Source: Candidatus Atabeyarchaeum deiterrae
Lineage (GTDB): Archaea; Asgardarchaeota; Atabeyarchaeia; Atabeyarchaeales; Atabeyarchaeaceae
Direction: 5' to 3'
Assembly: GCA_037310415.1 (NCBI GenBank)
Contig: CP147780.1
Span: forward strand, 1,760,001 to 1,824,000
Length of the DNA: 64,000 nucleotides
Shown: piece after piece, positions 6,348 to 22,563 of the stretch
Position numbering within the stretch: the stretch's first letter is position 1
Layout: each line of letters starts with the position of its first letter
Position numbers and translations under genes: made by a program
The notes under the pieces: generated by a model
Databases searched by the model: none
Told to the model about the DNA's origin: nothing
The model's input: the letters and a program-made list of their open reading frames with translations, nothing else

Positions 6348-7250
6348 CTATGCTTGCGCTCTGAGCTTCTGTTTTGTGAGTTCATTATCATCTATGCGCT
6401 GGCTGCACACTGGGCAGCGATCCTTCACGTGCAACCATTCAAGCAGGTGAACTTTATGTGCGATATTCCCGCAGTGAGGGCATCTCAGAATCGGATCTCC
6501 CAGTTTGAAATTCAAGTTGCAAACAATGCATTTCCTGTCAGTCACACTTATCTTCTCTTCTTTAGCAGGAACTGCCGCGCGTGCACGCTTCCCTGCCTTT
6601 CTCTCCCTGATTACTATGACGGGTTGTTCAACTCGCGCAGGCTGGCGGCCTGCGGTAGAGCGCTGTGCTCCCTTTGGAAACTGTTCTCTTGGCTGACTTA
6701 ACTCGAGTTGCTCTTCCTGCAAGCTTGCTCCACAATTCATGCAGAAGAGAGCGCCAGGGAATTGCACCTCTGTGCCGCAGTAGGGACAAGCCGCGAGTCT
6801 TTCCGGACGCATACGGGAAGCGATATTTCGAGCTGTATCAGAAGCGGCTCGTGTCTCACTGACAGAGACTTCAGGAATATTCTCGTTCTCTATCATTGAG
6901 GCAAGCTGAGGGTTGAGTCTGACCGCTTCATCATAGCACTTGGCAGCGTCCTCATGCCTGCCAAGCTTGCTCAATGCAATGCCTTTCTGGAACCATGCTT
7001 TCTCATACCTCGGATCTATTCCGAGCGCTTGGTCAAACACTTTCAACGCTGCTTCAAACCTGTTAAGACTGATTAGAGAGACACCTTTGTTGTAGTAGGC
7101 AACGGTGTACTGGGGGTCCTCTTCTATCGCCCTGTTGTAGCTTTCTACTGCTTCATTATAGGCGCCGATGTTGTCAAAGTTGATGCCTTCATAGAACCAC
7201 TTCACAGCATTAGATCTAGGCACCGAGTCGGTCCTCCTCACCAGCATCAT
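6348..7250 (-). CDS. TPR + zinc-ribbon + RING-variant protein (candidate E3 ligase)
   Basis: About three TPRs (AYYNKG, AWFQKG); CPYC..CMNC; C-terminal CIVC-x12-CPHC-x4-HKVHLLEW-x6-CPVC. Confidence 0.75.
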   Translation of the reverse strand: MMLVRRTDSVPRSNAVKWFYEGINFDNIGAYNEAVESYNRAIEEDPQYTVAYYNKGVSLISLNRFEAALKVFDQALGIDPRYEKAWFQKGIALSKLGRHEDAAKCYDEAVRLNPQLASMIENENIPEVSVSETRAASDTARNIASRMRPERLAACPYCGTEVQFPGALFCMNCGASLQEEQLELSQPREQFPKGAQRSTAGRQPARVEQPVIVIRERKAGKRARAAVPAKEEKISVTDRKCIVCNLNFKLGDPILRCPHCGNIAHKVHLLEWLHVKDRCPVCSQRIDDNELTKQKLRAQA

Positions 7251-18131: not shown

Positions 18132-18902
18132 CTACGTCTCTTCTCTGCCATTTTTCCTGCCTCTTGACTGCTTCGTTGCTCTCGACAGTTGTTCGCTGAG
18201 CTCCTTCTCATCTAGGTGCTTGCTGCAGGCTGGACATTGGTTGTGCACATGCAGATACTCGAGTAAGTGGTCTCTGTGAGCTGGACTTCCACAATGCGAA
18301 CACCACGCCACGGCATCACTCAGTCTCAAGTCCTGATTGCATACCATGCAGATGCCTGTGCTCTCGGCAACTCGAGGCAGTCGCGCCTCCTGTGAAGTTT
18401 GAACGTTTGTAGCGCGAGGGGAGACGTCTGCGGCTGCAGTCGCTAGGTTTGCCTCACAACGTGGGCAGAACTTGGCACCATCTATGATTATAGTTGAACC
18501 ACAGTTGCCGCATACCGGCCTTAGCCGAATGACTTCCAGCTTGATCCGATAAATGCCAATGGAGACGAGAAGCATAGCGACAATAAATCCAAATATCATG
18601 GCTAGCGCGGGAATCAGCGGGAGTTCGCTACCTTTCATTACCCATATCTTGTCGGGAGGAACTCCAGCAAATTCAGCAACAACATAGATCACGGGAATGT
18701 CGACAAGTATACTGAGGATTCCGAGTATGATGACTATTCTATTTCGTCTATGGACCTTAAGTGTGGCACCGCAACCAGAGCACAGAAACTCCCTCCCTCG
18801 CAACCGTGAGAAGAATATCCTATTATCTGTTTGACAATTCGGGTACCTAACCCCAAGCGGTCTCGTAGTGGCTGGCATGCCTTCCTTTCTCCCAAATGTC
18901 AT
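18132..18902 (-). CDS. Zn-ribbon / 2TM / Zn-ribbon / RING-variant membrane protein
   Basis: YPNC..CSGC, two TM helices, CGNC..CPRC, CMVC-x12-CSHC-x4-HRDHLLEY-x6-CPAC. Confidence 0.75.
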   Translation of the reverse strand: MTFGRKEGMPATTRPLGVRYPNCQTDNRIFFSRLRGREFLCSGCGATLKVHRRNRIVIILGILSILVDIPVIYVVAEFAGVPPDKIWVMKGSELPLIPALAMIFGFIVAMLLVSIGIYRIKLEVIRLRPVCGNCGSTIIIDGAKFCPRCEANLATAAADVSPRATNVQTSQEARLPRVAESTGICMVCNQDLRLSDAVAWCSHCGSPAHRDHLLEYLHVHNQCPACSKHLDEKELSEQLSRATKQSRGRKNGREET

Positions 18903-18998
18903 TCCAGCAGATTACTCAACCGATTCTATCTCCGTTAATTCTATTCGAGGCTATTGCCCGTCGGATACTTGAACAGGCGAGCCTTGCGGTTAAGCGCT

Positions 18999-19718
18999 TC
19001 ATAGTGTGCTTACGCGCTTCCATTTCTTTTTAGTTGTTTGTCGCTTATTCGAGTGTAACGGTGGGTCCTTGATTTCGGGCTCCTCAAGGTGTTTGCCGCA
19101 TGCAGGACAGCTCTTTCTCAGGTGAACCCATTCAATCAAGTGGACCTTGTGAAAGGTGTTTCCGCAGTGTGGACAGCATGCGAGAACCTCGCTCTCATTC
19201 ATTTCCAAGTCGCAGACAAGGCACGTTCCAACTGGTTTGGGTTTCGGAAGATGATGTGTCGGTCTCTGGGTCTCAATCTGCTGCTCGGTAATTGTGATTC
19301 TTTCCCAGGCTGGGTGTTCCATGCTCGCTCCACAGTTTGGACAGAACTCAGCGTCCTCCAGGACCATGACTGCGCTACAGTATTTGCAGGTGGGTCGCAG
19401 CCGAACGACCTCTATCTTCTTGACACGGATAATAATAGATACTACAATGAGGAAATAGGGGAGGATTCCCAGGCCGATCAGAAACATGAGTTCCCCACTG
19501 TCAGCTTTTCCTCCATAAGTGCCCAAGTACATGATGACAAGCAACACGACAACAATTGTGATGATTGGGAATCCAGCGATTCCGAGACCCATTGATGCTC
19601 TGAAACGAGCAGTTGTCTTGAGTACAGCCGGACAGTTGGGGCAATGAACCTCCCCAGATGCTTGACGTTTCTCGTTAGTCCAGAAATTGACTTCGTTCCT
19701 GCAGTTTGGGCACTTCAT
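18999..19718 (-). CDS. Zn-ribbon / 2TM / Zn-ribbon / RING-variant membrane protein
   Basis: CPNC..CPNC, two TM helices, CKYC..CPNC, CLVC-x12-CPHC-x4-HKVHLIEW-x6-CPAC. Confidence 0.78.
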   Translation of the reverse strand: MKCPNCRNEVNFWTNEKRQASGEVHCPNCPAVLKTTARFRASMGLGIAGFPIITIVVVLLVIMYLGTYGGKADSGELMFLIGLGILPYFLIVVSIIIRVKKIEVVRLRPTCKYCSAVMVLEDAEFCPNCGASMEHPAWERITITEQQIETQRPTHHLPKPKPVGTCLVCDLEMNESEVLACCPHCGNTFHKVHLIEWVHLRKSCPACGKHLEEPEIKDPPLHSNKRQTTKKKWKRVSTL

Positions 19719-19829
19719 TCTCTGCTTCCCCTCTACCCTGCATCTCTTCTGATGCTCAAACTAGGATTCATCTGCTCAAGTATCAGTCTCATACATTGAT
19801 TCATGATGTAGCTGACTTACAGCCTTCAT

Positions 19830-20564
19830 CTATTTTATTCTTCTTTGCATGCGCTTTTCAGATAACTGTTCCGTTAACTCCTTCTCGTCCAACTCCTTGC
19901 CACAAGATGGACACTCCTCGTGCACGTGCAAATACTCGAGTAAATGAGTTTTGTGGGCAGAACTCCCACAGTGCGGACACCATGCAGCAATTTCATTCGC
20001 CATCAGTTCCTCCTTACATACAGCGCAGATCCCGATGGTTTTGGTTCTAGGTGCCTTACTTTGTACTGCCACAGTTCCAGCTTGTCGAGAGCTAGCACGC
20101 TTTTTCCCAGATATATCGTCCAATTCTGCTCCACACTTCGGGCAGAAGTGTGCGCTCTCCATCTTGATTGTTGAACCACATCTAGCACAGATCGATGCAA
20201 GTCGAACCACCTGCAACTTCGCAGTGAACTGGGCAAATACTCCTAGAGAAATGCCGAGGATTACTCCACTCCAAAAGACTACGCCTGGGATCGGGTTTCC
20301 TTGCAACAGAAATATGGATGCAGTAGAATCAGTAAGATGTCCTCCAAGTGCGAGACCGACCAGAGCCGAAGCAACGGCTCCCAACACAATGGTGAGAATT
20401 GAGAACAGGAATAGTAGTCCCTTACTTCTTGGAAATCTGAGCACAGCAGCACACTTCGGACACCTTAGTTCTTGTCCCAGATCTTCGCGCCCTTTGAGCG
20501 TGATCCTTTCATCGCAATTTGGGCATTTCAGCGCCAATTCATATCTCATTTCACTCTCTTCCAC
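19830..20564 (-). CDS. Zn-ribbon / 2TM / Zn-ribbon / RING-variant membrane protein
   Basis: CPNC..CPKC, two TM helices, CARC..CPKC, CAVC-x12-CPHC-x4-HKTHLLEY-x6-CPSC. Confidence 0.78.
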   Translation of the reverse strand: MEESEMRYELALKCPNCDERITLKGREDLGQELRCPKCAAVLRFPRSKGLLFLFSILTIVLGAVASALVGLALGGHLTDSTASIFLLQGNPIPGVVFWSGVILGISLGVFAQFTAKLQVVRLASICARCGSTIKMESAHFCPKCGAELDDISGKKRASSRQAGTVAVQSKAPRTKTIGICAVCKEELMANEIAAWCPHCGSSAHKTHLLEYLHVHEECPSCGKELDEKELTEQLSEKRMQRRIK

Positions 20565-21146
20565 GAGCGATTGTGATCCTCACTTTGGAGTTTCGGCACC
20601 TTGCTTCTTCTGATTTTCATGCCTTGGATTCCCGGTACCTTCTGATCCCCCATCATTTTTCCTTCCATTCCCTTTTTCCACTCATAACATGAGAAGCCAT
20701 CATGACAAGGATCGTCGGGCAGAAGAACCAGAATTATGTAGAGCCTTGTGCAATATTGTCAACTTTCTGCATCTTTTCTCTTTCTACTTGCAACGGCCCC
20801 ATCACCCTGACTCAAAGGTCCCACTTCCTTCGATTCGCTCTCAACTGTAAGAACAGTGGATCAGTGACCTCTCACCCATAGTCCAATATATAAGGTAATC
20901 GCTTACAGTCAGTGAAACCAACTTTCTTGAGTGGAGTTGCATTAAACGGGACTTCCATCGGTTGAGGCCTGATCGAGAATCTCAGCAAATTCTACCTGCC
21001 AATTATTCTCAAATTGCTCGGATTAGTTTGTAATGGATAGGCAGCATCGGATGCCATTTGTTGAGAATTACGCAACGCCACCCGCAGAAAGCCCAACTGT
21101 TCGCACATCTTCTTAAGTATCTTGTCAAGAATCTCCCTAGTATAAG

Positions 21147-21881
21147 GTGTGTGATGCTATGCTTGCCACGGAGATTTCTCTCATCAGTTCCTTTACAATA
21201 AACGAGACAATTAAGCATATTTGCAGTGGAAAATTCCTTCTTCCCACAGTGCAGGAAGGGAACATCTGGTCTCCTAATGACGTGGTTAGACTATTCGATT
21301 CCCTAGTGCGGAGACACTCTTTAGGTTCATTCGTATTCTGGAGCGTCGGTAGAGAAAAGATGAAAGATTACAAATTCTACCCGCTTTGGCGAGATCAGCA
21401 TGAATCCTGCAACCAAAATGAGCTCAATGTAAGTCTTGGTGGCGCCGAAAATGTGTTAGTTGTCCTAGATGGGAAACGACGACTCGCTTCGCTCTACGTA
21501 GCGCTCAAAGGAATAAATGGGAGTGGAATGCCTGGAGAGTCATGCGATAATGACATTCATCTTCACGAAAGAAAACTGCACTTCAACCTTCTCTCCAAAC
21601 CAGCTGAGGATGAGCCATATCGGGGCTTCAAATTCCTAACGTCTCTGGAGGCTTCTGGTCAGCGGGATGAGAACACACACTGGTTCGAAATTGGCAAGGT
21701 ACTCGAGTTCAGGACCGTGGGCGATGCAAACAATTATCTGAGAGATAGCAATCTTATAGGAATTCAGTGTTCATCGCATTGGATGCTGAAGTTCTTCAAG
21801 GTCTTCAATGAAAAAGGGATAATAACCGGTCATCTGGAAACCTGCGAAGAAGTCGGAAGAGCTTTCATGGTTCTCTTGTGA
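21147..21881 (+). CDS. Degenerate/truncated DUF262 (GmrS-like) protein
   Basis: LLPTVQEGNIW (consensus PxxQRxYVW), LFDSL, LGSFVFW, VLDGKRRLASL (consensus DGQQR); no C-terminal nuclease domain. Confidence 0.7.
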   Translation: MCDAMLATEISLISSFTINETIKHICSGKFLLPTVQEGNIWSPNDVVRLFDSLVRRHSLGSFVFWSVGREKMKDYKFYPLWRDQHESCNQNELNVSLGGAENVLVVLDGKRRLASLYVALKGINGSGMPGESCDNDIHLHERKLHFNLLSKPAEDEPYRGFKFLTSLEASGQRDENTHWFEIGKVLEFRTVGDANNYLRDSNLIGIQCSSHWMLKFFKVFNEKGIITGHLETCEEVGRAFMVLL

Positions 21882-21903: not shown

Positions 21904-22563
21904 TTAGCCGAACTTGAAGGCGCACGGGCAGAGTTTGTTGAGTAAGCATTGAGCGCATTTTGGTTTCTTGGCCATGCAGATCGCTCTACCATGTGATATC
22001 AGCAGATCGGTCACCTTTGCCCACTTTTCTCTGGGCACCAATTCCATAAGATCTCTCTCAATCTTGTTGGCATCTTTCTTCTGTGTGAATCCAAGCCTCT
22101 GGGCAAGTCTGAAAACGTGGGTGTCAACGGCTATTCCTTCGATCACGCCATATGCGTTCTGGAGGACAATGTTCGCGGTCTTTCTCGCAACACCAGGTAA
22201 CTCAACCATTTCTTCCATTGTTCTTGGAATGATAGAGTTGAACTTCTCGACCAACATTTGGGAACTTTTCTTTATGTTCTTAGCCTTGTTGTGATAGAAA
22301 CCCGTTGGTTTGATCTCTTTTTCCAGTTTTCTCAGATCGGATTTCGCGTAGTCTTCGGCTGTCCTGTATTTCTGAAACAACGTCTTGGTGACGATGTTTA
22401 CTATTTTGTCAGTGCATTGAGCCGAAAGTATGGTCGCAACGAGTATCTCCAAGGGACTTGAGTAGTTCAATGCTGTTCTCGCGTTAGGATACTCGCTTTC
22501 CAGTAGCTCAATTACTCTAAGCATTCGTGTCTTCTCGTCGGCAGTCATTGTCAAGACTCCCAT
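21904..22563 (-). CDS. nth: Endonuclease III
   Basis: LSAQCTD, LPGVARKTAN HhH motif, VDTHV, C-x6-C-x2-C-x5-C. Confidence 0.96.
   Translation of the reverse strand: MGVLTMTADEKTRMLRVIELLESEYPNARTALNYSSPLEILVATILSAQCTDKIVNIVTKTLFQKYRTAEDYAKSDLRKLEKEIKPTGFYHNKAKNIKKSSQMLVEKFNSIIPRTMEEMVELPGVARKTANIVLQNAYGVIEGIAVDTHVFRLAQRLGFTQKKDANKIERDLMELVPREKWAKVTDLLISHGRAICMAKKPKCAQCLLNKLCPCAFKFG

Follow-up and report, generated by a model that had tools for sequence, protein, structure and literature searches.

The window considered here is a stretch of 64,000 nucleotides from the closed 2.76-Mb genome of the Asgard archaeon Candidatus Atabeyarchaeum deiterrae (genome positions 1,760,001 to 1,824,000), and coordinates are given within it unless the genome is named. 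Its minus strand carries a tandem triplet of genes (P0001, P0002 and P0003; Table 1), separated by spacers of 96 and 111 nucleotides, each encoding a protein with two predicted transmembrane segments and a C-terminal zinc-binding domain of the RING type. I will argue that the three are probably membrane-anchored RING-type ubiquitin ligases (E3s).

An initial annotation, made from the sequence alone, had placed three adjacent paralogs between 18132 and 20564, and minus-strand open reading frames (ORFs) are found exactly there. Two of the starts admit some choice: the public record begins gene 1 eight codons later, giving 248 residues, and gene 3 as listed begins with GTG, an ATG five codons downstream being equally possible. 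The proteins are 30–41% identical in pairs and, in a search of the genome, match one another at E-values of 1e-37 to 1e-46. Because of this identity and these mutual matches, which far exceed chance, I take them to be true paralogs.

Each protein is built from the same modules in the same order: an N-terminal ribbon (CxxC...CxxC), a transmembrane hairpin, a strand with the motif K(L/I)xV(V/I)RL, a second ribbon (CxxC-x11-CxxC), a linker of about 25 residues and the RING. This layout, proposed earlier, holds in all three except for the N-terminal ribbon of the 256-residue protein, which is degenerate: Tyr 20 (18843–18845, minus strand) replaces the first Cys, a residue kept in the ortholog P0008 and in both sister paralogs, and this ribbon probably no longer binds zinc. 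The claim that the hairpins are divergent and the last domain conserved is borne out by identities across the three paralogs of 17% and 51%, respectively. The other regions range from 8% (linker) through 42% (second ribbon) to 62% (juxtamembrane motif). No residue is conserved throughout the hairpins, and in the AlphaFold2 model of P0003 the linker is disordered at residues 150–173 (predicted local distance difference test, pLDDT, below 50).

A Kyte-Doolittle scan finds two hydrophobic transmembrane segments in each protein, and the AlphaFold2 model of the 244-residue protein places helices at 48–72 and 91–113. In all three the flanks of the hairpin are rich in Lys and Arg and the short loops poor in them. 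Since flanks rich in Lys and Arg stay on the cytoplasmic side (the positive-inside rule), both termini and all the zinc-binding modules are expected to be cytoplasmic. Each is thus predicted to form a helical hairpin that crosses the membrane two times and leaves N- and C-terminus on the cytoplasmic side.

Table 1. Positions of the triplet genes, their modules and a further RING paralog in the window.
Feature	Position	Strand	Residues	Remarks
Gene 1 (P0001)	18132..18902	-	256 aa	degenerate N-terminal ribbon, two transmembrane segments, ribbon, RING
Gene 2 (P0002)	18999..19718	-	239 aa	N-terminal ribbon, two transmembrane segments, ribbon, RING
Gene 3 (P0003)	19830..20564	-	244 aa	N-terminal ribbon, two transmembrane segments, ribbon, RING
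RING, gene 1	18225..18350	-	aa 185-226	putative C4H2C2 ligand set
RING, gene 2	19098..19223	-	aa 166-207	
RING, gene 3	19902..20027	-	aa 180-221	modelled alone, pLDDT 79.8
Second (juxtamembrane) zinc ribbon, gene 1	18456..18512	-	aa 131-149	CxxC-x11-CxxC
Second zinc ribbon, gene 2	19332..19388	-	aa 111-129	
Second zinc ribbon, gene 3	20133..20189	-	aa 126-144	
Transmembrane hairpin, gene 1	18537..18746	-	aa 53-122	predicted by hydropathy
Transmembrane hairpin, gene 2	19410..19604	-	aa 39-103	predicted by hydropathy
Transmembrane hairpin, gene 3	20223..20429	-	aa 46-114	predicted by hydropathy and AlphaFold model
N-terminal ribbon, gene 1	18771..18845	-	aa 20-44	degenerate, Tyr at first Cys
N-terminal zinc ribbon, gene 2	19632..19712	-	aa 3-29	
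N-terminal zinc ribbon, gene 3	20451..20525	-	aa 14-38	
Soluble RING paralog outside the tandem array	6348..7250	-	300 aa	three TPRs, zinc ribbon, same RING type

Two antisense ORFs (19089–19595 and 19951–20613, plus strand) were treated as shadows of these genes; homologs are shown for the minus-strand genes, and the antisense ORFs were not searched.

The C-terminal domain and its ligands

All three proteins end in the pattern C-x2-C-x12-C-x2-C-x4-H-x2-H-x10-C-x2-C. To judge from sequence and predicted fold, the domain that bears it is a RING and probably neither a PHD finger nor a plain ribbon, since four independent lines of evidence concur: a profile search of the PDB, a scan of Pfam families, the predicted fold, and the identity to a RING encoded in the ubiquitin gene cluster of the same genome. 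The comparison of profile hidden Markov models (HMMs), the family assignment and the fold all agree with the RING-type domain first proposed, and the 50 best fold matches contain no PHD or double-ribbon fold.

When a profile from 17 domain sequences was compared with all PDB sequences, the best matches were E3s of the RING-H2 class, RNF24 (5.9e-10), RNF126 (9.5e-8) and EL5 (4e-7), followed by Arkadia, RNF165, ZNRF1, RNF38, listerin, HRD1 and gp78. The first PHD finger appeared at an E-value of 0.029. Family domains scanned singly (E < 0.01) matched Prok-RING_1 in 79 cases out of 79 and zf-RING_2 in 78. The RING of the 244-residue protein is 45% identical to the 86-residue RING of the ubiquitin cluster (E-value 2.8e-14; 2.4e-22 by HMM).

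The predicted fold tells the same story. In the domain-only AlphaFold2 model, built on an alignment of 79 sequences, short strands are followed by a helix (36–46) that starts at ligand 6 and bears the aromatic residue considered below. An unbiased scan of 48,161 representative chains returned RING or U-box domains as all of its best 50 matches, among them Slx1 (Z 7.5), Prp19, TRAF6, RNF146, a peroxin RING, RNF4, HRD1, CHIP, ZNRF1 and EL5; a domain of about 55 residues can be expected to give only modest Z values, as this one does, and the weight lies in the uniformity of the list. Foldseek superimposed the domain model on EL5 with a root-mean-square deviation (rmsd) of 1.6 Å over 48 residues and on HRD1 with 1.4 Å over 48. 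As Foldseek E-values are weak for so tiny a domain (3e-3 at best), the case for the fold is built on the unbiased scan and on matches that are uniformly of one kind. The sole entry named for a PHD in the top-50 lists is PHF7, itself an E3 that binds E2.

These same results bear on the proposal, implied by the public annotations, that the domain is no RING at all but a PHD-type reader or an ordinary pair of zinc ribbons that binds nucleic acid or metal. The public names ("RNA-binding Zn-ribbon DUF1610," "HypA/HybF," "Com") say as much, and the ribbon family DZR (PF12773, curated cut-off 27.3 bits) passes in two of the three proteins, with 29.0 and 37.3 bits, the third falling below at 27.1. The DZR match, however, takes in the second ribbon and the RING's first half and so reflects CxxC knuckles, not the last domain. 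PHD fingers have a gap of four residues between ligands 4 and 5, as here, and the spacing of ligands 3 to 5 in general resembles theirs. Ligand 6, however, is His; no PHD scores better than 0.029, against 6e-10 for RING E3s; RING and U-box domains fill the 50 best places of the fold scan; and the helix from ligand 6 carries an aromatic residue, as it does in RINGs. I regard the proposal as very improbable. A plain double ribbon was rejected on the same grounds, the DZR match covering CxxC knuckles only, set beside RING E3 profile and fold matches.

Seven of the eight ligand positions never vary in the 79 family sequences; at the sixth, 74 have His and five Asp. The 143 pattern-matching representatives comprise 137 with His, six with Asp and none with Cys at this position, in agreement with the unusual sixth ligand remarked on at the outset. 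The ligand signature of the family, read from the alignment, is C4H2C2, which in a cross-brace would give one C2H2 and one C4 zinc site. Of the C-terminal motif first described, the eight-ligand pattern stands in all three proteins, but the His written into it as C-x-H-C does not belong to the ligands: it is His in 38 of the 79 members, otherwise Tyr, Phe, Ser or Asn, and because of this limited conservation the Cys that follows is taken as ligand 4. When aligned with RNF24, the family has a non-ligand where RING-H2 carries its ligand-4 His; the pair is made up by a Cys three positions upstream of the one aligned. An identical displacement of the third and fourth ligands was noted in the srfp of Caldiarchaeum by Hennell James et al. 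(PMC5654768).

Two further classes do not fit. The domain is not RING-H2 (C3H2C3), since it has Cys as ligand 4, with Asn, Ser or Gly where RING-H2 has its His, and His as ligand 6. Nor is it RINGv: the spacing in the triplet is C-x2-C-x4-H-x2-H, the RING lies C-terminal to the hairpin, and RINGv is not among the most-matched families. By sequence comparison it belongs with the archaeal srfp/Prok-RING_1-like family, and its nearest eukaryotic relative is RING-H2.

The initial annotation also claimed a surface for binding the ubiquitin-conjugating enzyme (E2), and three E2-contact positions are conserved without exception in the 79 sequences: a hydrophobic Val or Ile two residues after ligand 1 (V/I182), an aromatic residue four after ligand 6 (position 211; Trp in 62, Tyr in 13, Phe in four) and Pro after ligand 7 (P219). 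The first two are equivalent to I30 and W58 of the Caldiarchaeum E3, residues that, when mutated, left ubiquitylation impaired or abolished (PMC5654768).

Polar residues other than the ligands are also conserved in the RING family: E210 (72 of 79), H213 (73), H224 (56) and E227 (71). On P0003 (aa 180–227, window 19884–20027, minus strand) they form two pairs, E-x2-H in the helix and H-x2-E after the last Cys, whose spacing would suit a third metal site or a network of hydrogen bonds.

The RING family and the ubiquitin system

The initial annotation presumed an Asgard host with a ubiquitin system, and both parts proved right. The genome holds a single ubiquitin-ESCRT cluster (genome 341,400–350,000) that encodes Vps4, ESCRT-II (a Vps25-like protein and EAP30), Vps28, a UEV-Vps23 fusion, a JAB/MPN protease, a 286-residue coiled-coil protein, the 86-residue RING, ubiquitin, a canonical E2 and a ubiquitin-activating enzyme (E1) with a C-terminal ubiquitin-like domain. 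Ubiquitin appears in precursor form, since its C-terminal GG is followed by one Arg. The E2 retains HPN...C87 and the loops KFPFEPP and WTPA; in UbcH5-type E2s the corresponding loops contact RINGs. It is 80% identical to the E2 of Candidatus Njordarchaeum guaymaensis, a species that also has a relative of the transmembrane RING proteins; by these two matches the source would fall in or near Njordarchaeia. The small operon RING of Caldiarchaeum acts as an E3 in vitro (PMC5654768), and a Helarchaeia operon of the same make-up as the cluster has been reconstituted, its RING E3 ubiquitylating UEV-Vps23 (bioRxiv 10.1101/2023.07.25.550441).

An expanded family was also predicted, and a genome-wide count with an HMM of the three triplet domains gives 12 RING paralogs, eight membrane-anchored and four soluble. 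Besides the triplet, the membrane-anchored set comprises a fourth protein with two transmembrane segments, 5 kb past the end of the window, a ribbon-hairpin protein and three type-I proteins. The ectodomains of the last three are carboxypeptidase-regulatory-like, an FG-GAP beta-propeller, and a repeat domain that found no Pfam match at E ≤ 1e-4. The repeat domain makes up about 250 residues of a 425-residue protein (genome 2,493,250–2,494,527, minus strand) and consists of recurring "DGGYIVAG/VG...W" units. The soluble paralogs are the operon RING, a ribbon-ribbon-RING protein, a 669-residue helical-repeat protein and the TPR-ribbon-RING protein encoded within the window (6348–7250; TPR_1 8.5e-25; Prok-RING_1 29.4 bits, just over the cut-off of 29.1). 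The architecture of this last protein resembles that of CHIP (TPR and an E2-binding domain).

Beyond the genome, an exhaustive profile search of 1.84 billion representatives found 590 clusters at E ≤ 1e-10, rising to 5,117 at E ≤ 1e-3, under public names such as hypothetical, zinc ribbon domain-containing, DUF1610 RNA-binding Zn-ribbon, HypA/HybF and Com. Among the best 150 representatives, 98 have at least one strongly hydrophobic window of 19 residues, 109 have a ribbon no more than 90 residues upstream of the RING, and in 135 of the 143 that match the pattern the RING lies within 35 residues of the C-terminus. The cassette of ribbon, linker and RING has evidently been joined, as far as these sequences tell, to a wide variety of N-terminal parts. 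Proteins built exactly like the triplet are less common, with 11 full-length proteins in a word-seeded search and about 10 further clusters in the profile search that have an N-terminal ribbon before the hairpin. In three other proteins, P0015 (452 aa), P0021 (745 aa) and P0018 (208 aa), the RING profile matched five to eight separate stretches, and these may carry several RING or ribbon repeats per chain.

For 41 genomes of the phylum I also compared the distribution of the family with that of the E2. Each of the two, the RING family and a UQ_con E2, occurs in 33, and the 33 are identical; the eight that lack both include four that are 95–99% complete. At the level of families, leaving aside that of the source genome, the two occur together in 14, are both missing from four and are never found apart. 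No p-value was attached to these counts, given that related genomes are not independent of one another, but the lack of a single discordant genome is what a dedicated E2 partner predicts. Within a genome, E2-type matches number 1–5 and RING matches 1–30, the eukaryote-like arrangement of few E2s and many E3s. The sister genus, represented by a closed genome of 2.8 Mb, has 30 matches to the ribbon-RING cassette as compared to 14 in the source genome; its loci extend from 1.72 to 2.36 Mb, many of them clustered (e.g., 2,026–2,030 kb and 2,154–2,178 kb), with frames of 124–836 residues, a lineage-specific burst of RING genes. Full-length matches of the triplet type are confined, among the same 41 genomes, to the source genome's own family. 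In the sister genus the sole full-length match (approximately 1,800,055–1,800,741) is reduced to a minus-strand ORF of 137 residues that begins at the juxtamembrane motif, with two TGA stops in the part where the ribbon and hairpin are expected, and is possibly a pseudogene or an assembly error.

The triplet itself appears to be old. In a maximum-likelihood tree of 28 hairpin-type proteins, P0001 groups with P0008 (support 98/93), P0002 with P0144 (94/91) and P0003 with P0005, P0006 and P0063 (95/90). Because each paralog has its own ortholog in other assemblies, the tree indicates that the duplications predate the divergence of these organisms and that each copy has been kept. Orthologous proteins are 38–47% identical, and synonymous sites are saturated. 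One contig (JGI) carries two adjacent members beside genes for endonuclease III, ferredoxin-thioredoxin reductase and glutaredoxin, a neighborhood like that in the window.

Such persistence raises the idea, a refinement of the ligase reading, that the paralogs join through their hairpins into a hetero-oligomeric, multi-RING complex like that of Pex2, Pex10 and Pex12. Same-strand paralogs 96 and 111 nucleotides apart, each kept as a separate orthologous lineage, would suit it, as would the tandem pair on the related contig and the appearance among the fold matches of the Pex RING of 7t92 (Z 5.9, rmsd 2.1 Å over 55 residues). However, both members of the JGI pair fall within the P0003 clade rather than in different ones, the hairpins have no conserved residues, and the RING fold matches are generic. 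I consider such a complex quite unlikely.

Upstream of the triplet, and divergent from it, lies a 244-residue ORF (21147–21881, plus strand) that matches GmrSD_N, the N-terminal domain of DUF262-type restriction endonucleases, and adjoins the gene for endonuclease III (21904–22563, minus strand).

A probable ligase at the membrane and its alternatives

The mechanism that I infer, from E2 binding and catalysis to the substrates and their downstream fate, would run as follows. On the inner side of the membrane, the RING would engage the ubiquitin-charged form of the only canonical E2 that the genome encodes, and would touch it with the three conserved residues described above: the Val or Ile near ligand 1, the aromatic residue beyond ligand 6 and the Pro next to ligand 7. 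The hairpin, the two ribbons, or both would hold a substrate or partner at the membrane, ubiquitin would pass to the proteins so held, and either the proteasome or the co-encoded UEV-Vps23/ESCRT machinery would then receive what had been tagged. A role in membrane-protein quality control, as suggested at the outset, would be conjectural, and the low conservation of the hairpin is equally compatible with a role in specificity and with that of a mere anchor.

Several observations weigh against the triplet proteins being ligases. Their Prok-RING_1 scores (21.6, 17.5 and 25.2 bits; 26.4 for the isolated domain) fall under the curated cut-off of 29.1 bits (PF14446), and their zf-RING_2 scores (15.6–20.7 bits) under that of 27.3 (PF13639). 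At the linchpin position, directly behind the last Cys, the triplet has Gly or Ser (Gly in 41 of the 79 family members), with a Lys one residue later, and so allosteric activation of the ubiquitin-charged E2 may be weak or of another kind. A distance of 1.43 Mb separates the genes from the ubiquitin cluster, and their neighbors (enoyl-CoA hydratase-like, GmrSD_N-like and endonuclease III genes) include none related to ubiquitin; the Prok-RING_1-type link to ubiquitin-like, E1, E2 and JAB genes holds for the operon paralog and not for the triplet. Some eukaryotic RINGs of this fold, those of GATOR2 and IFT-A, are purely structural, and RINGs of GATOR2, the SEA complex and IFT-A are among both the sequence and the structure matches. 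Neutral as to the putative E2 binding is a co-fold of the E2 (9-row alignment) with the RING (79-row) and two zinc ions (score 0.00, run without controls).

The low family scores may be set beside those of same-genome paralogs that clear the Prok-RING_1 cut-off (32.4 bits for the operon RING, and 29.4 and 40.4), which the triplet matches at E-values of 1e-14 to 1e-22; by these comparisons the triplet RINGs are homologous to Prok-RING_1, yet sub-threshold. The linchpin, the structural RINGs among the matches and the neighborhood devoid of ubiquitin genes would all be at home in a different account, in which the domain is a non-catalytic RING, a zinc-stabilized module for interaction or assembly at the membrane that has no ligase activity, as in GATOR2 or IFT-A. 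A structural role, however, requires neither E2-contact residues that are invariant in 79 members nor strict co-occurrence with an E2, and the closest characterized relatives are active E3s (PMC5654768; bioRxiv 10.1101/2023.07.25.550441). I find this account unlikely, and membrane-anchored ligases the probable reading.

More can be proposed with less assurance. It is possible, though I would hold it only tentatively, that the triplet ligases ubiquitylate membrane proteins for ESCRT-dependent sorting. Broader still, and similarly doubtful, is the suggestion that Asgard archaea have a diversified and mostly membrane-anchored layer of RING E3s that works with one E2 and sends membrane proteins to UEV-Vps23 and ESCRT. 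Such a layer might, speculatively, include forms with a transmembrane hairpin, as in the triplet, and type-I, receptor-like forms with beta-propeller or beta-sandwich ectodomains.

Membrane-bound ubiquitin ligases have so far been described mainly in eukaryotes, and work on archaeal ubiquitylation has gone by way of the operon's small, soluble RING. Should the membrane-anchored paralogs prove active, the Asgard membrane would gain a layer of substrate selection, the missing link between the ubiquitin cascade and ubiquitin-binding ESCRT-I/II. If this is true, ubiquitin-dependent sorting or down-regulation of membrane proteins, and the logic of one E2 with many membrane E3s, would have arisen before eukaryotes. 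That question of eukaryogenesis would become directly testable, since the cytoplasmic fragments are of modest size, their cognate E1, E2 and ubiquitin have been identified, and reconstitutions of a similar kind already work. There is also a gain in annotation, for at least 590 sequence clusters (E ≤ 1e-10) now labelled hypothetical, zinc ribbon, HypA or DUF1610 RNA-binding.

Comparison with known systems

The open-access literature that was searched yields no account of membrane-anchored RING proteins from Asgard archaea. Sporadic bacterial Prok-RING_1 proteins with transmembrane helices are reportedly treated by Burroughs, Iyer and Aravind in 2011 and in the Pfam family text. As compared to these sporadic occurrences, the triplet resides in an Asgard genome with a full, eukaryote-like set of E1, E2, ubiquitin and ESCRT components and a RING family of 12 members.

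The likeness to MARCH- and RNF-type ligases that was suggested at the outset needs to be divided. With MARCH (RINGv) proteins the triplet shares a hairpin of two transmembrane segments, a cytoplasmic RING variant and four Cys as the first four ligands, so that the analogy of architecture stands. In MARCH, however, the RINGv (C4HC3) precedes the hairpin, its spacing is C-x-C and x7, and its ligand 6 is Cys, whereas the RING of the triplet is C-terminal, with C-x2-C and x4 spacing and His as ligand 6; the relation is one of analogy, not membership, and RING-H2 is nearer. The best matches of the triplet among solved structures, in sequence and in fold, are the eukaryotic membrane RING-H2 E3s (RNF24, the ATL family with EL5, HRD1, gp78/AMFR, ZNRF3/RNF43), which also have a transmembrane anchor, a cytoplasmic C-terminal RING and the E2-binding signature of Val or Ile, aromatic residue and CP. 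They differ in their ligands (C3H2C3 as against C4H2C2), in transmembrane parts that are not homologous and in having no extra ribbons, and a common descent of the archaeal and eukaryotic membrane architectures would, on a domain of about 50 residues, be conjecture.

Pex2, Pex10 and Pex12 (PDB 7t92) are likewise three paralogous transmembrane proteins that end in a cytoplasmic RING (fold Z 5.9), but each has five or more transmembrane helices and they form a heterotrimer, while the triplet proteins have two and show no sequence relation to them outside the RING. Closest of all is srfp (Caldiarchaeum subterraneum; the Helarchaeia RING E3; PF14446), of the same RING family, with which the triplet has in common the displaced third and fourth ligands and the equivalents of I30 and W58. 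In its case the RING is a free protein of about 75–100 residues inside an operon with ubiquitin, E1 and E2; in the triplet it ends proteins of 239–256 residues with two transmembrane segments and two extra ribbons, encoded 1.43 Mb away from such a cluster. What the triplet seems to offer, then, is an archaeal RING family already known, set in a membrane-embedded architecture that had apparently not been described, as part of a wider expansion that is predicted to be largely membrane-bound.

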